Part shown: positions 11,747-58,566 of the stretch, piece by piece | How positions within the stretch are numbered: the stretch's first letter is position 1 | Layout of the letters: the number at the start of each line of letters is the position of its first letter | Assembly (NCBI GenBank): GCA_965228895.1 | Contig: OZ245842.1 | Location: forward strand, 5,088,001-5,152,000 | Direction of reading: 5' to 3' | Length of the DNA stretch: 64,000 bases | Origin: Alphaproteobacteria bacterium | Lineage (GTDB): Bacteria > Pseudomonadota > Alphaproteobacteria > SP197 | Notes under the pieces: model-generated | Database searches by the model: none | What the model was told of the DNA's origin: nothing | The model's input: the letters and a program-made list of their open reading frames with translations, nothing else | Translations under genes and position numbers: made by a program

Positions 11747-12739
11747 TCAGTCGAACGCGCGAAGCGTGTCATAACGGCCACGTCGATACAGGAGAATCTC
11801 ACGTAGAAGCACGCCTCCTGGGATCACAAAAAGTAGAAAGAACGATGTGTGCTGCGAGAGGACGCTCCAAGTTGGAAAGCCCAACATTGGAAAATGTATG
11901 TAGTAGAGATCTCGCACATTGATGGCCGCCAGCATTGCAAATTCAACTAGGGCAACTTTCGGCAACGTCGTCATAACAAGCGCCCGAAACCATAGCGAAC
12001 GGACGACTGCAAGTATTACGGCAGCGGCAACGATCAACGTCGTGTCGATTTCAAAGGGGCCGACGGTGTCGAGTGTCATGATGATTAGAAGCGCAACACC
12101 GGTCGCCAACGCATCCCAAAAAAGCAGCGGTGCCACCGACCGTGTGCGTGCCAAACCTCGACCGAGTACGAGGTATACGATGAACGCCACAATGGCGAAC
12201 CAGACATAGGGAGATGTTGCCGTTGCGCGAGCGTACAGGCAGAACACCGACGGCGCGTTCTGAACCCCGTAGAGCCAAACAGCCGGTGTCACAAACACTG
12301 TCAGCGCAAGCAAAGCGATCAGCGCTGCCCCAAGTGTCACACCCGACGGTCGTTCGTCCAAAAAACGGCGTGACACACACATGGCAACAAGGGGCACGAG
12401 ACCGATAAAGAGCCACGCAAAGCCGGACCTGATCACCGCTTCATAGAGACATACAAGGAAGACGATGCGAGACGCCATCCAGGATGTCATGGCCAGTGGC
12501 GCACCTGGCCAAACCATGTCTTGAAACCCGGTCCTCAATGCGAGCACCATCGCCAGAATGACTGAGCCAGCCATTCCGCCCGCAATCCAATTCAGGCCAT
12601 CGATTTGCACATTCGCCAATGCGAGCGACGTATGACCACCGCAAAACAAGAGGGTGGCAAGCAATGCGATTGCTAGACCGCCAATAGGTGGGTAGCGCCA
12701 CCAAGGTATCCGGCTGGACTCTGTTTGCTCGCCCGACAC
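11747..12739 (-). CDS. Divergent DMT/EamA-like membrane protein
   Basis: 330-aa hydrophobic ORF, RRFLDERPS resembles the EamA LxE loop; AT-richer than flanks; GTG start. Confidence 0.55.
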   Translation of the reverse strand: MSGEQTESSRIPWWRYPPIGGLAIALLATLLFCGGHTSLALANVQIDGLNWIAGGMAGSVILAMVLALRTGFQDMVWPGAPLAMTSWMASRIVFLVCLYEAVIRSGFAWLFIGLVPLVAMCVSRRFLDERPSGVTLGAALIALLALTVFVTPAVWLYGVQNAPSVFCLYARATATSPYVWFAIVAFIVYLVLGRGLARTRSVAPLLFWDALATGVALLIIMTLDTVGPFEIDTTLIVAAAVILAVVRSLWFRALVMTTLPKVALVEFAMLAAINVRDLYYIHFPMLGFPTWSVLSQHTSFFLLFVIPGGVLLREILLYRRGRYDTLRAFD

Positions 12740-12759
12740 AAGCTAACCGAAAGCTGTCG

Positions 12760-14130
12760 TCACGGCTGTTGACCAGCGAGCGCGACTTCGATCGCCTTGC
12801 CCAGGCGCAGAAGAGAGGCTTCTTGGTTGGCGCGCTGCATGACCATCAGGCCGGCTGGCAGGCCCAGGTCGTCGCGGCCACAGGGCAGTGTCAGCGCGCA
12901 GAGCTTCAAGAGATTGCCGGGCGTCGTGTTGCGCAGGGTGCCGCGGTTGGCGTGGCGGTAGGCCCGCTCATCGTCGATCAGATCGGCAATCGGCGGCGGG
13001 CTGATCGGCACGGTCGGGGCGATCATCGCATCCCACCCGGCAAGCCGCCGGTACATGACATCCTGCACGGCCTTCAATTCATTCTGCATGCGCACGAGAT
13101 CGTAGCCGGCGAGCTTGGTGCCGTCGCGGAAGCGCGGCAGCATGTTGGCGTAGATCAGGTCGGGTTTTTCTTCGACCAGATCGCCCCAGCAGGCATAGGC
13201 CTCGACGGTGACGACGCCACCACCCTTGCCCATGATCTGGACGGCCTGGTCGATCTCGTCGACCTGCTCCCAGGTCACCGTGGCGCCGGCGCGCTCCAGG
13301 GCTTCGACACCGGCGCGCACGGCGCGCTCGATGCCCGGATCTATATCGACCCAAAGTCCGTTCGTGGGCGCCAGGAACCGTTTGCCTTTCAGCGAGGCGC
13401 CGGCCAGATCGGCGGCCTTGCGGCCGCTCAGAACCGACCACACCGCGTTGGCATCGGCGACGTCGCGGGTCAGCGGGCCGATCGTATCCAGGCTGGGCGA
13501 CAGCGGCAGGATGCCGTCCAGGGTGAGATCGCCGGCGGTTGTCTTGAGCCCGACCACACCGTTGAGCGACGCCGGGATGCGGACCGACCCGCCGGTGTCC
13601 GACCCGATGCCCGCGGGCGCCAGGCCGCGCGCGACGGAGACCGCGGCGCCGGACGACGATCCGCCGGGGATGCGCGCGACCGTGTCGTCATGGGCGTTGG
13701 GCGGGGTGCCATAGGTCGTGTTGATGCCGAGACCGGAAAACGCGAACTCCGTCAGGTTCGTCTTGCCCAGGCACACCGTGCCGGCCCGTGTGGCGCGCGC
13801 CAGGAGCGTCGCGTCATGCTCGGGCACGCGGCCCTGCAGCGCGCGCGCGGCGCCGTTGGTCTCGACGCCCGCCGTGTCGACCAGGTCCTTCCACGACAGC
13901 GGCACGCCATCGAGCGGCCCGCGCCGCTGGCCCGCCTGGGCGCGCGACCGCGCCGCGATGGCTTCAGCGCGCGCGCGCTCCGGCGTCAGGCGCAGGTAAA
14001 CCAGATGATCGGGATCGTCGGCGGCAATGCGATCGAGAAAGTGGTCGGCCAGCGCCACCGGGTCGATGGCGCCGCTTCCGACGCCCTCGCCCAGTTCCAA
14101 TGCCGTCATGTCGTGCCAGGCCTCGGCCAT
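12760..14130 (-). CDS. Amidase signature family protein (GatA-like amidase)
   Basis: GPLDGVPLSWKD, GKTNLTEFA, PGGSSSG, GSDTGGSVRIPAS (Ser-cisSer-Lys triad). Confidence 0.92.
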   Translation of the reverse strand: MAEAWHDMTALELGEGVGSGAIDPVALADHFLDRIAADDPDHLVYLRLTPERARAEAIAARSRAQAGQRRGPLDGVPLSWKDLVDTAGVETNGAARALQGRVPEHDATLLARATRAGTVCLGKTNLTEFAFSGLGINTTYGTPPNAHDDTVARIPGGSSSGAAVSVARGLAPAGIGSDTGGSVRIPASLNGVVGLKTTAGDLTLDGILPLSPSLDTIGPLTRDVADANAVWSVLSGRKAADLAGASLKGKRFLAPTNGLWVDIDPGIERAVRAGVEALERAGATVTWEQVDEIDQAVQIMGKGGGVVTVEAYACWGDLVEEKPDLIYANMLPRFRDGTKLAGYDLVRMQNELKAVQDVMYRRLAGWDAMIAPTVPISPPPIADLIDDERAYRHANRGTLRNTTPGNLLKLCALTLPCGRDDLGLPAGLMVMQRANQEASLLRLGKAIEVALAGQQP

Positions 14131-14150
14131 CGGCGCCCCTCTCGTTTTGC

Positions 14151-14214
14151 TTGTGCGGATTCACCTGCCTTGATGTCACCGCGAAGCGATTCCATCAAAA
14201 CAGGATCTGCTCTA
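14151..14214. repeat. Family A element, single half copy
   Basis: ttgtgcggat-tca-[41 nt]-atctgctcta; core nearly identical to the second core of the 58298 copy. Confidence 0.8.
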
Positions 14215-14279
14215 GGTCGCCAATCTAGTCTGCCCCGGTTGTTCTGGACAATGCGTCGTGGCGTGACGATGTTTCCCTT

Positions 14280-15503
14280 ATGGATGTTTCGAACCGACCT
14301 GACACCGATATCGCCATCGTTGGCGGTGGCCTGAACGGTCTGACGGCGGCCGTGGCGCTGGCCGGCGCCGGCTTCGACATCACGCTGATCGACCGGCTTG
14401 ATCCCCGCGAGACGCTGGACGCCGGGTTTGACGGGCGCGTCTCGTCGATCGCCTGGAGCTCCAAGGTCATGCTGGAGACCATGGGTGTCTGGCAGGGGGT
14501 CGCCAGGGAGGCCGAGCCGATCCTGGAAATCCGGGTTTCCGACGGCAACGCGCCGCTTTTCCTGCACTACGACCACCGGGATGTCGGCGATCACCCGCTT
14601 GGTTTTATCGCCGAGAACCGCACCCTGCGCCGCGCGCTGATCGACCGGGTGGCAAGCCTCGACAACATTCAGATCAAGGCGCCACACAGCGTGGCGGCGA
14701 TGGAGCGGGGGCCTGAAACCGCCACCGTGAGCCTTGCCGATGGCAGCGCTATCAGCGCGCGTCTGGTGATCGCCTGCGACGGCGCGTTATCGCCGGTGCG
14801 CGCCATGGCGGGCATTCGCCATATCCGTCACGCCTATGGCCAGACCGGGATTGTCACGACCGTGCTGCACGAACGGCCCCATCGCAGCATCGCCCATGAG
14901 CGTTTCTTGCCGGCCGGCCCGTTCGCCATCCTACCCCTGCCCGGCAACCGCTCGTCGCTCGTGTGGACCGAAGCCGACGACATCGCCGAACGGATCGTGG
15001 CGCTCGATGACGACGCGTTTCTTGAGGAGCTCATGTGGCGCTTCGGCGATTTTATGGGGACCCTTCAGCCGACCGGGCCACGCTGGTCCTATCCGCTCAC
15101 CCTGGTCCATGCGGAACGTTATGCCGATCACCGGCTGGCGCTGGTGGGCGATGCCGCCCATCTGATCCATCCGATCGCCGGCCAAGGCTATAACCTCGGC
15201 CTGCGCGATACCGCTGCCCTGGCCGAGGTCCTGGCCGATCGGCGCCGGCTCGGTCTGGAGCCCGGCCATATGGACGGCCTCGAGCGTTACGCCCGCTGGC
15301 GCCGGGTCGACAACCTCATGTTGATCGCCGTCACAGACAGTCTTAACCGTTTGTTCTCGAACGATCTGGCGCCGATCAGGCTGGCGCGGGACCTCGGGCT
15401 GGCCGCTGTTAACCAATTGCCGCCTCTCAAAAAACTTTTCATGCGCCATGCGATGGGAACCGTCGGCCATCTTCCGCGGCTGCTGCGCGGCGAGGTGCTC
15501 TGA
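14280..15503 (+). CDS. ubiL: Ubiquinone biosynthesis FAD-dependent hydroxylase (UbiH/UbiL family)
   Basis: GGGLNG Rossmann motif, FDGRVSSI, ERFLPAGPFAILP, LVGDAAHLIHPIAGQGYNLGLRD, LFSND. Confidence 0.85.
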   Translation: MDVSNRPDTDIAIVGGGLNGLTAAVALAGAGFDITLIDRLDPRETLDAGFDGRVSSIAWSSKVMLETMGVWQGVAREAEPILEIRVSDGNAPLFLHYDHRDVGDHPLGFIAENRTLRRALIDRVASLDNIQIKAPHSVAAMERGPETATVSLADGSAISARLVIACDGALSPVRAMAGIRHIRHAYGQTGIVTTVLHERPHRSIAHERFLPAGPFAILPLPGNRSSLVWTEADDIAERIVALDDDAFLEELMWRFGDFMGTLQPTGPRWSYPLTLVHAERYADHRLALVGDAAHLIHPIAGQGYNLGLRDTAALAEVLADRRRLGLEPGHMDGLERYARWRRVDNLMLIAVTDSLNRLFSNDLAPIRLARDLGLAAVNQLPPLKKLFMRHAMGTVGHLPRLLRGEVL

Positions 15504-15648
15504 CGGCCTGCCGCTAACCGGTTGATTACCAACGCTTATGACGAATTGACCAGTCGTCACCAATCGAAATGAGCAGCCTCATTACCGATTAGGGCGCGTG
15601 CGTTCGCCGATGAGCGGCGCGGGCGGCCGGATAAATGTATCCAAAGTG

Positions 15649-15859
15649 TTATCGCGACACGGCCGACCCCCTCGAAACCTCCGCGCCGCGATAAAGGTTA
15701 AGCATCATCGACCTCCTTGATGCGTCCAGCGGCCCACCCAGCCAACCGGCGCATCGCAGATCAGAACCGGACCCGAGCCTCCCCCGACCCCAAACCCCAC
15801 CGGTCCTGGTCTTTCTTCAGACGCCGCTCCCTGCCCCAAGGGAGCGGCGTCATTTTTTT
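15649..15859 (+). ncRNA. Candidate sRNA with multiple hairpins bearing C-rich loops
   Basis: Stems 15649-15662/15681-15694, 15719-15726/15748-15755 and 15758-15770/15800-15812 with C-rich loops, followed by an intrinsic terminator; no credible ORF in the region. Confidence 0.5.
15820..15859 (+). terminator. Rho-independent terminator
   Basis: gacgccgctccct-gcccca-agggagcggcgtc followed by attttttt. Confidence 0.85.
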
Positions 15860-15870
15860 GGTCACTGGGT

Positions 15871-15901
15871 TTGACCTTCCAGCAACGGGAGGCCTTAGCG
15901 T
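15871..15901 (+). promoter_or_regulatory. CueR (MerR-type) promoter for the cytochrome c gene
   Basis: TTGACC -35, 19-bp spacer carrying ACCTTCC-N7-GGAGGC dyad, TAGCGT -10. Confidence 0.75.
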
Positions 15902-15936
15902 GCTGGTCTTGTTGCGACTGCAAGGGTCAGAAAGTC

Positions 15937-16326
15937 ATGTTTTTTCGTCTTGGCGCAGCCGCGCTTGCGTTGGTCGGCGCCGCTTTCAGTGCCGTCGTCG
16001 CGCTTTCGGGCGAACACGAAGTCGACGTGGTCGTGCCGTCCTTGTCGGGGCCGGCGCTTGAGGGCCAAGCCGTGTTCGAGCAATTCTGCGCCGAATGCCA
16101 CGGGGCAACCGCCGGCGGCACCGAAAAGGGTCCGCCCCTGGTCCATCCGCTCTACAATCCCGGCCACCACGGTGACATGGCGTTCGTACGGGCTGCGCAA
16201 CAGGGTGCGCGCGCCCACCACTGGGGTTTCGGCGACATGGATCCGGTGCCTGATGTCACCGATCAGGATCTGTTCCTCATCATTCGTTATGTCCGCGCCC
16301 TACAGGAGGCCAACGGCATCCACTGA
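15937..16326 (+). CDS. Monoheme cytochrome c, His-rich, copper-cluster associated
   Basis: Signal peptide, CAECH heme motif, GPPL, GHHGD and AHHWGFGDM. Confidence 0.85.
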   Translation: MFFRLGAAALALVGAAFSAVVALSGEHEVDVVVPSLSGPALEGQAVFEQFCAECHGATAGGTEKGPPLVHPLYNPGHHGDMAFVRAAQQGARAHHWGFGDMDPVPDVTDQDLFLIIRYVRALQEANGIH

Positions 16327-58300: not shown

Positions 58301-58435
58301 AGCGGATCATGGTGAGATGGGATCGCTTGACGGTCCCATCTCACCATGTGAATCCGCTCTTTATCGATGAGTAGAGCAGATTCACCTGTCTTGATGTCAT
58401 CGCGAAGCGATTCCATCAAAACAGGATCTGCTCTA
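58298..58435. repeat. Family A bipartite hairpin element, copy 3 (138 bp)
   Basis: Same scaffold with two 41-nt cores; the left TAG is the MFS stop codon; CTAG at both ends. Confidence 0.88.
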
Positions 58436-58457
58436 GTGGCTTATCTTGACGTCTGCG

Positions 58458-58566
58458 CCGGCCCACTCCCCCGCCCGGCCACCCATGGCAGCATCCTCGG
58501 GGTGGCTTCGGCGAAAACGCCTCTCGGCGTTTTGCCCCGGGGGAGGGGGAGAGGGCTGGCACCGGC
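58458..58566. repeat. Palindromic repeat family B, copy 2, right arm interrupted by a small hairpin
   Basis: Left arm and loop match 4975-5016 with two substitutions; ggcgaaaacgcc-tctc-ggcgttttgcc inserted in the right arm. Confidence 0.8.

Follow-up and report, generated by a model that had tools for sequence, protein, structure and literature searches.

The 64,000-nucleotide stretch of alphaproteobacterial DNA that we analysed (the window) carries on its plus strand a ubiquinone hydroxylase gene, followed on the same strand by the element described here and then by a copper module (Table 1). The match to TIGR01988 places the hydroxylase in the UbiH/UbiF/VisC/COQ6 family but does not establish the name ubiL, which had been given to it in an earlier reading of the sequence alone (the sequence-only reading), and we refer to the gene simply as ubi. 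The gap between its stop codon (15503) and the next start codon (15938), put at about 430 bp in that reading, measures 434 nt. The ubi start is not preceded by a visible G-rich Shine-Dalgarno (SD) sequence. No Pfam or NCBIfam family was found either for the 548-aa open reading frame upstream of ubi (12688-14334) or for the 129-aa CxxCH protein whose gene follows the element. A MerR/CueR-type promoter stands ahead of the CxxCH gene at 15871-15901, 12 bases past the U-tract of the element; it consists of TTGACC, a 19-bp spacer with the dyad CCTTCC-N6-GGGAGG, and TAGCGT, a configuration that we take to resemble the E. coli copA promoter. In G002a the same MerR-type box (CTTCCAGTAACTGGAAG) lies immediately before a merR-family gene.

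A terminator scan of 15300-16100 identified one intrinsic terminator, at 15820-15851 and followed by T7, in agreement with the 13-bp terminator and U-tract described in the sequence-only reading. It belongs to the element itself and is the sole terminator downstream of ubi, there being none between the ubi gene and the element. The count alone is not significant, as one site was found against a shuffle mean of 1.0, and it is the strength of the hairpin and its conservation that carry the weight. The promoter scan of 15300-16100 returned no sigma-70-like site, and no promoter motif common to the element's genus and its sister genus was found.

Table 1. Features of the locus, in window coordinates.
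Feature	Position	Strand	Basis or detail
UbiH/UbiF/VisC/COQ6-family ubiquinone hydroxylase gene (ubi)	14280..15503	+	TIGR01988, 441.8 bits against a cut-off of 224.65
Conserved 5' block	15561..15648	+	8/79 columns vary in 15561-15639, 4 genus copies
Hairpin 1	15649..15694	+	stem 15649-15656 with 15687-15694 plus inner pairs
AU-rich linker ending ACCUCCU (15711-15717)	15695..15717	+	ACCTCCT invariant in 4/4 genus copies
Hairpin 2	15718..15756	+	stem 15718-15726 with 15748-15756; apex CAGCGGCCCACCCAGCCAACC
Hairpin 3	15758..15812	+	stem 15758-15770 with 15800-15812; 29-nt C-rich loop 15771-15799 with GCCUCCCCCGACCCCAAACCCC
U-rich spacer	15813..15819	+	most variable short stretch, 5/7 columns vary
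Intrinsic terminator	15820..15859	+	13-bp stem, 10 G-C, CCCCAA loop, T7
Copper module, first gene (CxxCH protein)	15938-16326		followed by SHOCT, MerR-family and P-type ATPase genes
Single RNA-library contig	15663..15809	not given	162 nt, depth 3.6, 4 differing letters; seawater RNA library

Parts and predicted fold of the element

The three hairpins with C-rich loops proposed from the sequence are all present. The loop of hairpin 1 comprises 18 nt (15663-15680) and reads CCGACCCCCTCGAAACCT, that is, CCGACCCCCUCGAAACCU; the first CCUCC (15679-15683) is CCCCC in the other three copies known from the genus. The stem of hairpin 3 has 13 pairs, one of which is an A-C mismatch in the window's genome, and its core GAUCAG/CUGAUC is common to the sister genus, whereas hairpin 2 is restricted to the element's own genus and is absent from the sister-genus form. 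The recurrence of one motif in loops 1 and 3 was likewise borne out, with CCGACCCC at 15663-15670 and again at 15784-15791 and AAACC after each.

Between hairpins 1 and 2, the linker sequence GACCUCCUU is a 9-nt complement of AAGGAGGUC. The ACCTCCT stretch reported there, the loop-out that would enclose it and the two alternative partners of GATGC (15719-15723) are all as originally described: GCATCA (15702-15707) pairs with TGATGC (15718-15723) in the loop-out, and the same GATGC forms the 5' arm of hairpin 2. The linker is thus either unpaired or forms the loop when the alternative GCAUCA/UGAUGC hairpin is made, and it is this hairpin that the alignment fold picks. Four C-rich stretches are predicted to be unpaired, namely CCGACCCCCUCGAAACCUCC in loop 1, ACCUCCUU in the linker, the apex of hairpin 2 and the 29-nt loop 3. 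Runs of four to five C occur in loops 1 and 3 and in the terminator loop, and the hairpin 2 apex has only runs of three C. The linker stretch ACCUCCUU has the same sequence as the anti-SD core of 16S rRNA.

The plus strand of 15640-15865 has a minimum free energy of -83.6 kcal/mol against -60.9 +/- 3.9 for 200 shuffles (z -5.82), and not one of the 200 was as good. The minus strand also folds better than its shuffles (z -4.06), although without a U-tract after the terminal hairpin; the U-tract after the terminator is found on the plus strand only.

Upstream of hairpin 1, the 5' block contains an imperfect dyad or hairpin at about 15562-15594 (AATCG-AAATGAG-CAGC-CTCATT-A-CCGATT), the AU-rich sequence GGATAAATGTATCCAAAGTGTTAT and the dyad GGATA-N4-TATCC at 15629-15642, the last of which had been pointed out before and is unique in the genome. 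The block can be folded, but without covariation, and an RNA 5' domain, a processing site and a promoter or operator are all candidates for its role. Both dyads occur only once in the genome, which led us to reject the idea that they mark the operators of a regulon.

Conservation within the genus and in a sister genus

Of the 60 relatives compared, none but the other two genomes of the same genus has the element, which is present in a single copy in the window's genome by both BLAST and covariance model. In one of these two genomes (G002) the element occurs twice, after separate ubi genes whose proteins are 88% and 80% identical to that of the window, giving four genus copies in total. The elements at the two G002 loci (L004 on G002:C74 and L011 on G002:C2) share 89-94% identity with each other and with that of the window, and the second G002 copy ends at a contig edge; the two loci may be either true paralogues or the product of a mixed bin (5% contamination).

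Across these four copies, 34 of the 220 columns in 15640-15859 vary (15.5%), as do 8 of 79 (10%) in 15561-15639, compared with 19 of 57 in the preceding 15504-15560 and with 231 of 399 third codon positions of ubi in the same four sequences (57.9%; Fisher p 4e-26 for 15640-15859 against the third positions). Variability is 12/27 right after the ubi stop codon and then drops to 7.5-13%, and past the terminator it climbs to 41/78, a figure drawn from three sequences only. The low variability of 15561-15859 relative to its flanks defines a constrained unit of about 300 nt, so that the start at 15649 assigned in the sequence-only reading has to be moved some 90 nt further upstream, to near 15561. 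Within the unit, the C-rich cores at 15663-15671, 15711-15717, 15729-15748 (the hairpin 2 apex) and 15781-15798 do not differ between any of the four copies. Taken as a class, loops show no greater conservation than stems (17.5% and 12.2% of columns vary, respectively), and none of the 56 pairs shows a compensatory change on both sides within the genus.

The last 150 nt of ubi (15351-15500) also have a lowered third-position variability (17/50, against 52-76% further upstream), which could reflect an internal promoter, RNA structure extending into the gene, or the edge or tract of a recombination event.

The four copies also bear on the coding potential of the region. It is very improbable that what is conserved is a small basic protein of 36 aa, read from an ATG at 15610 to a TGA at 15720. 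Its frame is open from the ATG in all four copies, but no SD precedes the ATG, the stop is lost in G002a and the substitutions show no third-position bias. The other two overlapping small open reading frames were discarded, their frames being broken in relatives.

A covariance model built from the four genus copies only (R1) matched one place in G010, a genome of the sister genus, with 36 bits (E 8.6e-8 per genome). The homologue was found in all three sister-genus genomes by BLAST with the G010 sequence and by a second model (R2), and in none of the 27 genomes from the family's three remaining genera; this family by itself makes up the order (order-level and family-level searches covered the same 33 genomes). 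The sister form is shorter, at about 138 nt, and consists of a hairpin with the loop GCGACUCCCUUCAG, a hairpin with a GAUCAGG/CCUGAUC stem and the loop GGCGCCCCCCGGU, and a terminator in which the CCCCAA loop is kept. It begins 0-25 nt past the stop codon of a gene for a 118-aa acidic, signal-peptide-bearing protein of no known family that runs in the same direction, and its downstream neighbour is a Nudix gene. The 118-aa protein has no match in the window's genome, where the Nudix orthologue is not preceded by such an element. As the two genera share neither flanking gene, conservation concerns the unit itself and not its neighbours.

When the seven sequences of both genera were fitted to the model, 97.2% of cells paired, and sliding the partners by one to three columns reduced pairing to 33-43%. 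Both sides have changed in 13 of the 49 pairs, and 3 of 500 shuffles reached that number. These changes are spread over hairpin 1 (5 of 12 pairs, with pairing kept in 97.1% of cells), hairpin 3 (3 of 13 pairs; 97.6%) and the terminator (5 of 12 pairs between the genera; 98.8%), and in hairpin 2 one stem pair fails to form in both G002 copies (two cells). With only two clades and an alignment fitted to the model, the covariation amounts to few independent events. The expectation that homologues would lie downstream of ubi in relatives and show covariation was borne out in part: there are genus copies and a sister homologue with the 13 compensatory pairs, but the sister copy stands behind an unrelated gene and other ubi loci have none. 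At 75 loci with relatives of the ubi gene in other genomes, BLASTN and nhmmer found a homologue of the element only in a same-genus record, and the downstream regions of the 11 loci inspected by eye consisted of different genes.

These data make it quite improbable that the conservation belongs to a DNA-level regulatory region (ubi or copper operators) or to a recently exchanged tract and not to an RNA. Both the two dyads of the 5' block and the lowered third-position variability at the 3' end of ubi would fit such an origin. However, the variability peak just after the stop codon is unlike a uniform exchanged tract, the boundary of conservation coincides with the terminator, and the stems covary with a sister-genus copy at a different locus. 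Moreover, the MerR-type box of the downstream promoter lies outside the element, and the dyads are found nowhere else in the genome.

Beyond the two genera, R2 gave one weak full-length match in 150 other genomes of the class (G089, 28.1 bits). This locus, in another alphaproteobacterial family (L128:1540-1670, on G089:C12; R2 E 4.7e-6, a rough value), has a GAUC-stem hairpin and a terminator with a CCCCAA-containing loop (UUUCCCCAAGGG), again behind a gene, and could be distantly related to the element's 3' half. Weak R1 matches in G004, G007:C320, G009, G002:C35, G017, G018 and G030 were rejected as G+C-rich hairpins or coding sequence. A pattern scan of metagenomes returned six loci, three of them identical copies of the sister-genus type (one further variant on three contigs) and the other three chance matches. 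A looser pattern matched in 32 of 400 class genomes, mostly in coding sequence, and the reversed control also matched.

Taken together, the element is a conserved, structured, non-coding plus-strand element that exposes C-rich and anti-SD stretches, strongly conserved in one genus of marine-type alphaproteobacteria and with a shorter relative in the sister genus.

Transcription and possible action in trans

The stretch occurs in three public runs. X2 and X3 contain it in full, and X2 may be its source; X1, an rRNA-depleted seawater metatranscriptome, is available as contigs. A single contig of X1 covers much of the element (Table 1) and runs at one end into letters that we take to be the start of an Illumina adapter. 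The sequence of the element is therefore present in an RNA library; the contig gives neither strand, ends nor level, and DNA carry-over is possible. The rest of 15200-16100 has no cover in run X1, which is not readable as absence of the flanking mRNAs.

Since no terminator separates the element from the ubi gene, it is at least part of the ubi 3'UTR. The sequence-only reading had held that its proposal would fall if the element were only this 3'UTR; the element does belong to that 3'UTR, but 3'UTR-derived sRNAs such as CcsR also act in trans. The element has the arrangement of a 3'UTR-derived sRNA: it follows a coding gene in the same direction, no terminator stands between the two, and they share one, as is also true in the sister genus. 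It may be either an independent transcript or an RNA derived from the 3'UTR.

The arrangement invites a purely local explanation, in which the element is the structured 3'UTR and terminator of the ubi mRNA, protecting it from 3' exonucleases and insulating it from the copper-responsive promoter 12 nt past the U-tract, with no role in trans. That the element is co-directional with its upstream gene in both genera, that the sister form starts within a few bases of a stop codon, that ubi has no terminator downstream other than that of the element and that no promoter was found are all in keeping with this explanation. It nevertheless seems unlikely to be sufficient. Protection from exonucleases requires stems and not invariant loop sequences of 18-22 nt, 300 nt with four C-rich displays far exceeds the needs of a terminator, and the homologous unit stands behind unrelated genes in the two genera. 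Contact between the 3'UTR and the 5'UTR has no G-rich SD before the ubi start to work with, and pairing in cis with an ubi SD was rejected on this ground.

Instead, we favour a 3'UTR-borne RNA, released or separately started, that acts in trans. We prefer this form because there is no terminator after ubi, because the sister form abuts a stop codon and because the AU-rich stretch 15629-15654 precedes hairpin 1. The more explicit version, in which an anti-SD sRNA of the CcsR/sX13 kind arises from 15561-15859 and lowers translation at G-rich ribosome-binding sites, has in our estimate about an even chance of being correct. For the boundaries of the transcript, its processing, its action in trans and its targets we infer the following model. 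The region 15561-15859 would be transcribed on the plus strand as the long 3' end of the ubi mRNA, or from an unrecognised start just upstream, and the transcript would end at the element's own intrinsic terminator. The RNA would probably accumulate as a stable small RNA. Its likely route of release would be an endonucleolytic cut in the invariant AU-rich stretch 15629-15654, by analogy with the cutting of CcsR from the ccaF1 3'UTR by RNase E. The four C-rich displays could then pair with G-rich ribosome-binding sites of several mRNAs, resulting in reduced translation. The original proposal of a new multi-loop sRNA pairing with G-rich ribosome-binding sites is therefore upheld as regards a conserved, structured and uncatalogued plus-strand element with C-rich displays, but not as regards a discrete transcript of about 210 nt starting at 15649, as neither a sigma-70-like promoter nor a separating terminator was found.

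Complements of GGGGGAGG, AAGGAGGT and GAGGGGGT occur in start-site windows at 4-10 times the genome-density expectation, in a test that is partly circular since the start calls favoured SD motifs, and the enrichment is what SD sequences would be expected to give. Target prediction by duplex energy, as put forward in the sequence-only reading, scored start regions and gene interiors alike (means of -18.8 and -18.3 kcal/mol for loop 3), and therefore supports no specific target. Complements of 8-9 nt were found at 36 start sites. The 13 with matches of 9 nt or longer were scanned, 10 of them having a Pfam family; they include enolase, homocysteine S-methyltransferase, a Crp-type regulator, formaldehyde-activating enzyme and HypA, and no functional theme was found among the 13.

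Upstream of hfq (G000:C1:2264553-2264780, L159), GGGGGAGGAGG stands 6 nt from the ATG and is complementary over 8 nt to loop 3 (CCUCCCCC).

The top matches by duplex energy were rejected as targets, being arms of a near-perfect palindromic repeat of about 75-80 nt found throughout the genome. In this repeat, a C-rich and a G-rich arm flank a 15-nt loop that can have either orientation; the repeat's 11-mer seed occurs at 42 plus-strand and 43 minus-strand sites and its profile has 130 matches on both strands. The copies lie mostly beside genes, with one near 58,400-58,550 of the window, and are unrelated to the element. A relic of the repeat was considered as the origin of the element and rejected, as the repeat profile scores -1.7 bits on it (E 0.98) and the element is single-copy.

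C-rich loops might also serve something other than mRNA. Acting as a decoy, the RNA would use its loops, which include a copy of the 3' end of 16S rRNA, to titrate either an RNA-binding protein or the docking of mRNAs, and not specific mRNAs. Several similar loops on one scaffold (CCGACCCC occurring twice), the identity of the linker stretch to the anti-SD core and the presence of Hfq in the genome would suit this role, and CcsR RNAs are bound by CcaF1 according to PMC8034643. We nonetheless consider a decoy improbable, and the protein sponge suggested in the sequence-only reading gained no support, as no candidate C-binding protein is linked to the locus and there are no GGA-type CsrA sites.

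A more far-reaching variant of trans action, which we regard as distinctly unlikely, is that the unit is a portable 3'-end cassette of C-rich-loop hairpins with its own terminator that moved between unrelated genes of the sister genera, gained a hairpin and an exact anti-SD copy in the present genus, and became a broad competitor for strong G-rich ribosome-binding sites, including that of hfq (GGGGGAGGAGG). If so, it would govern how genes with a strong SD are translated as a class, and not the translation of a single target.

Relation to known C-rich RNAs

The favoured 3'UTR-borne RNA would belong to no catalogued family. As the sequence-only reading had surmised, a scan of Rfam 15 places the element in no known family: at permissive thresholds nothing came near any gathering score, and the best match, sX13 (RF02232), aligned over the full model with only 16.3 bits (E 0.75-7) against a gathering score of 50. 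The ar14/cuckoo model (RF02344, gathering score 58.8 bits) had no match in the region at E up to 10 and none genome-wide at E up to 1, a genome-wide search without a positive control, as the 14 control genomes contained no true positive. The cuckoo motif CCUCCUCCC, already said to be absent in its exact form, has no match within 15504-15860 at up to one mismatch; the closest sequence is CCUCCCCCG in loop 3, with two mismatches. A literature search for "C-rich loops" of sRNAs in Alphaproteobacteria found nothing under that phrase.

One locus of the sister genus deserves separate mention. At L124:1501-1645 (G007:C188:47819-47963), the 3' end of a gene has a terminator preceded by a hairpin whose apex is CCUCCUCCC without mismatch; the locus scores 23.7 bits with R2, and it is possible that this is a cuckoo-like module in this order.

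In architecture, the element is most readily compared with the cuckoo/alpha-r14/CcsR1-4/NfeR1 RNAs of Rhodobacterales and Rhizobiales, which are likewise alphaproteobacterial and have two to four adjacent hairpins with anti-SD-like C-rich loops, here three plus the terminator. PMC4615179 describes the cuckoo family as modular hairpins with anti-SD loops, each of which carries CCUCCUCCC. According to this source and PMC8034643, stems vary and loops are kept, and the Rhodobacter copies lie in the 3'UTR of a small gene, with CcsR1-4 and their anti-SD loops being cut from the ccaF1 3'UTR by RNase E beside U residues. In contrast, the loops of our element differ from one another, it is single-copy and not clustered, and its host lineage falls outside the families reported for cuckoo RNAs. 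Furthermore, the primary cuckoo locus lies beside a DUF1127 gene (OG1/ccaF1), whereas the neighbours here are the Ubi hydroxylase and the copper module, and the sister-genus copy adjoins a gene for an acidic secreted protein without a family.

The resemblance to sX13 of the Xanthomonadaceae lies in stable stems and apical loops with at least four C. As set out in PMC3771888, sX13 has three stems with 4C/5C loops and represses mRNAs with G-rich motifs near their start sites, hfq among them. Unlike the element, sX13 is a gammaproteobacterial RNA of 115 nt encoded by an independent gene at the polA locus, and no sequence homology between the two was found.

Further afield, the Gram-positive sRNAs with C-rich seeds (RsaE/RoxS and 6C) mask Shine-Dalgarno regions with unpaired C-rich loop stretches, in unrelated lineages and with unrelated sequences; none of these families had an Rfam match in the element. 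The 3'UTR of icaR in Staphylococcus aureus carries a C-rich anti-SD motif that acts in cis, unlike our element, which has no G-rich SD before the ubi start with which to pair.

The element opens no new mechanism. If it is confirmed, however, an uncatalogued family would join the few multi-loop C-rich anti-SD regulators (CcsR/cuckoo, sX13, RsaE and 6C), from a poorly studied order of Alphaproteobacteria that is without the cuckoo family by the tests run here. Its long and short forms, standing behind different genes, offer a pair for asking how 3'UTR-borne regulators arise, expand and relocate. In function, the element is closest to CcsR/cuckoo and sX13, and it is a member of neither.
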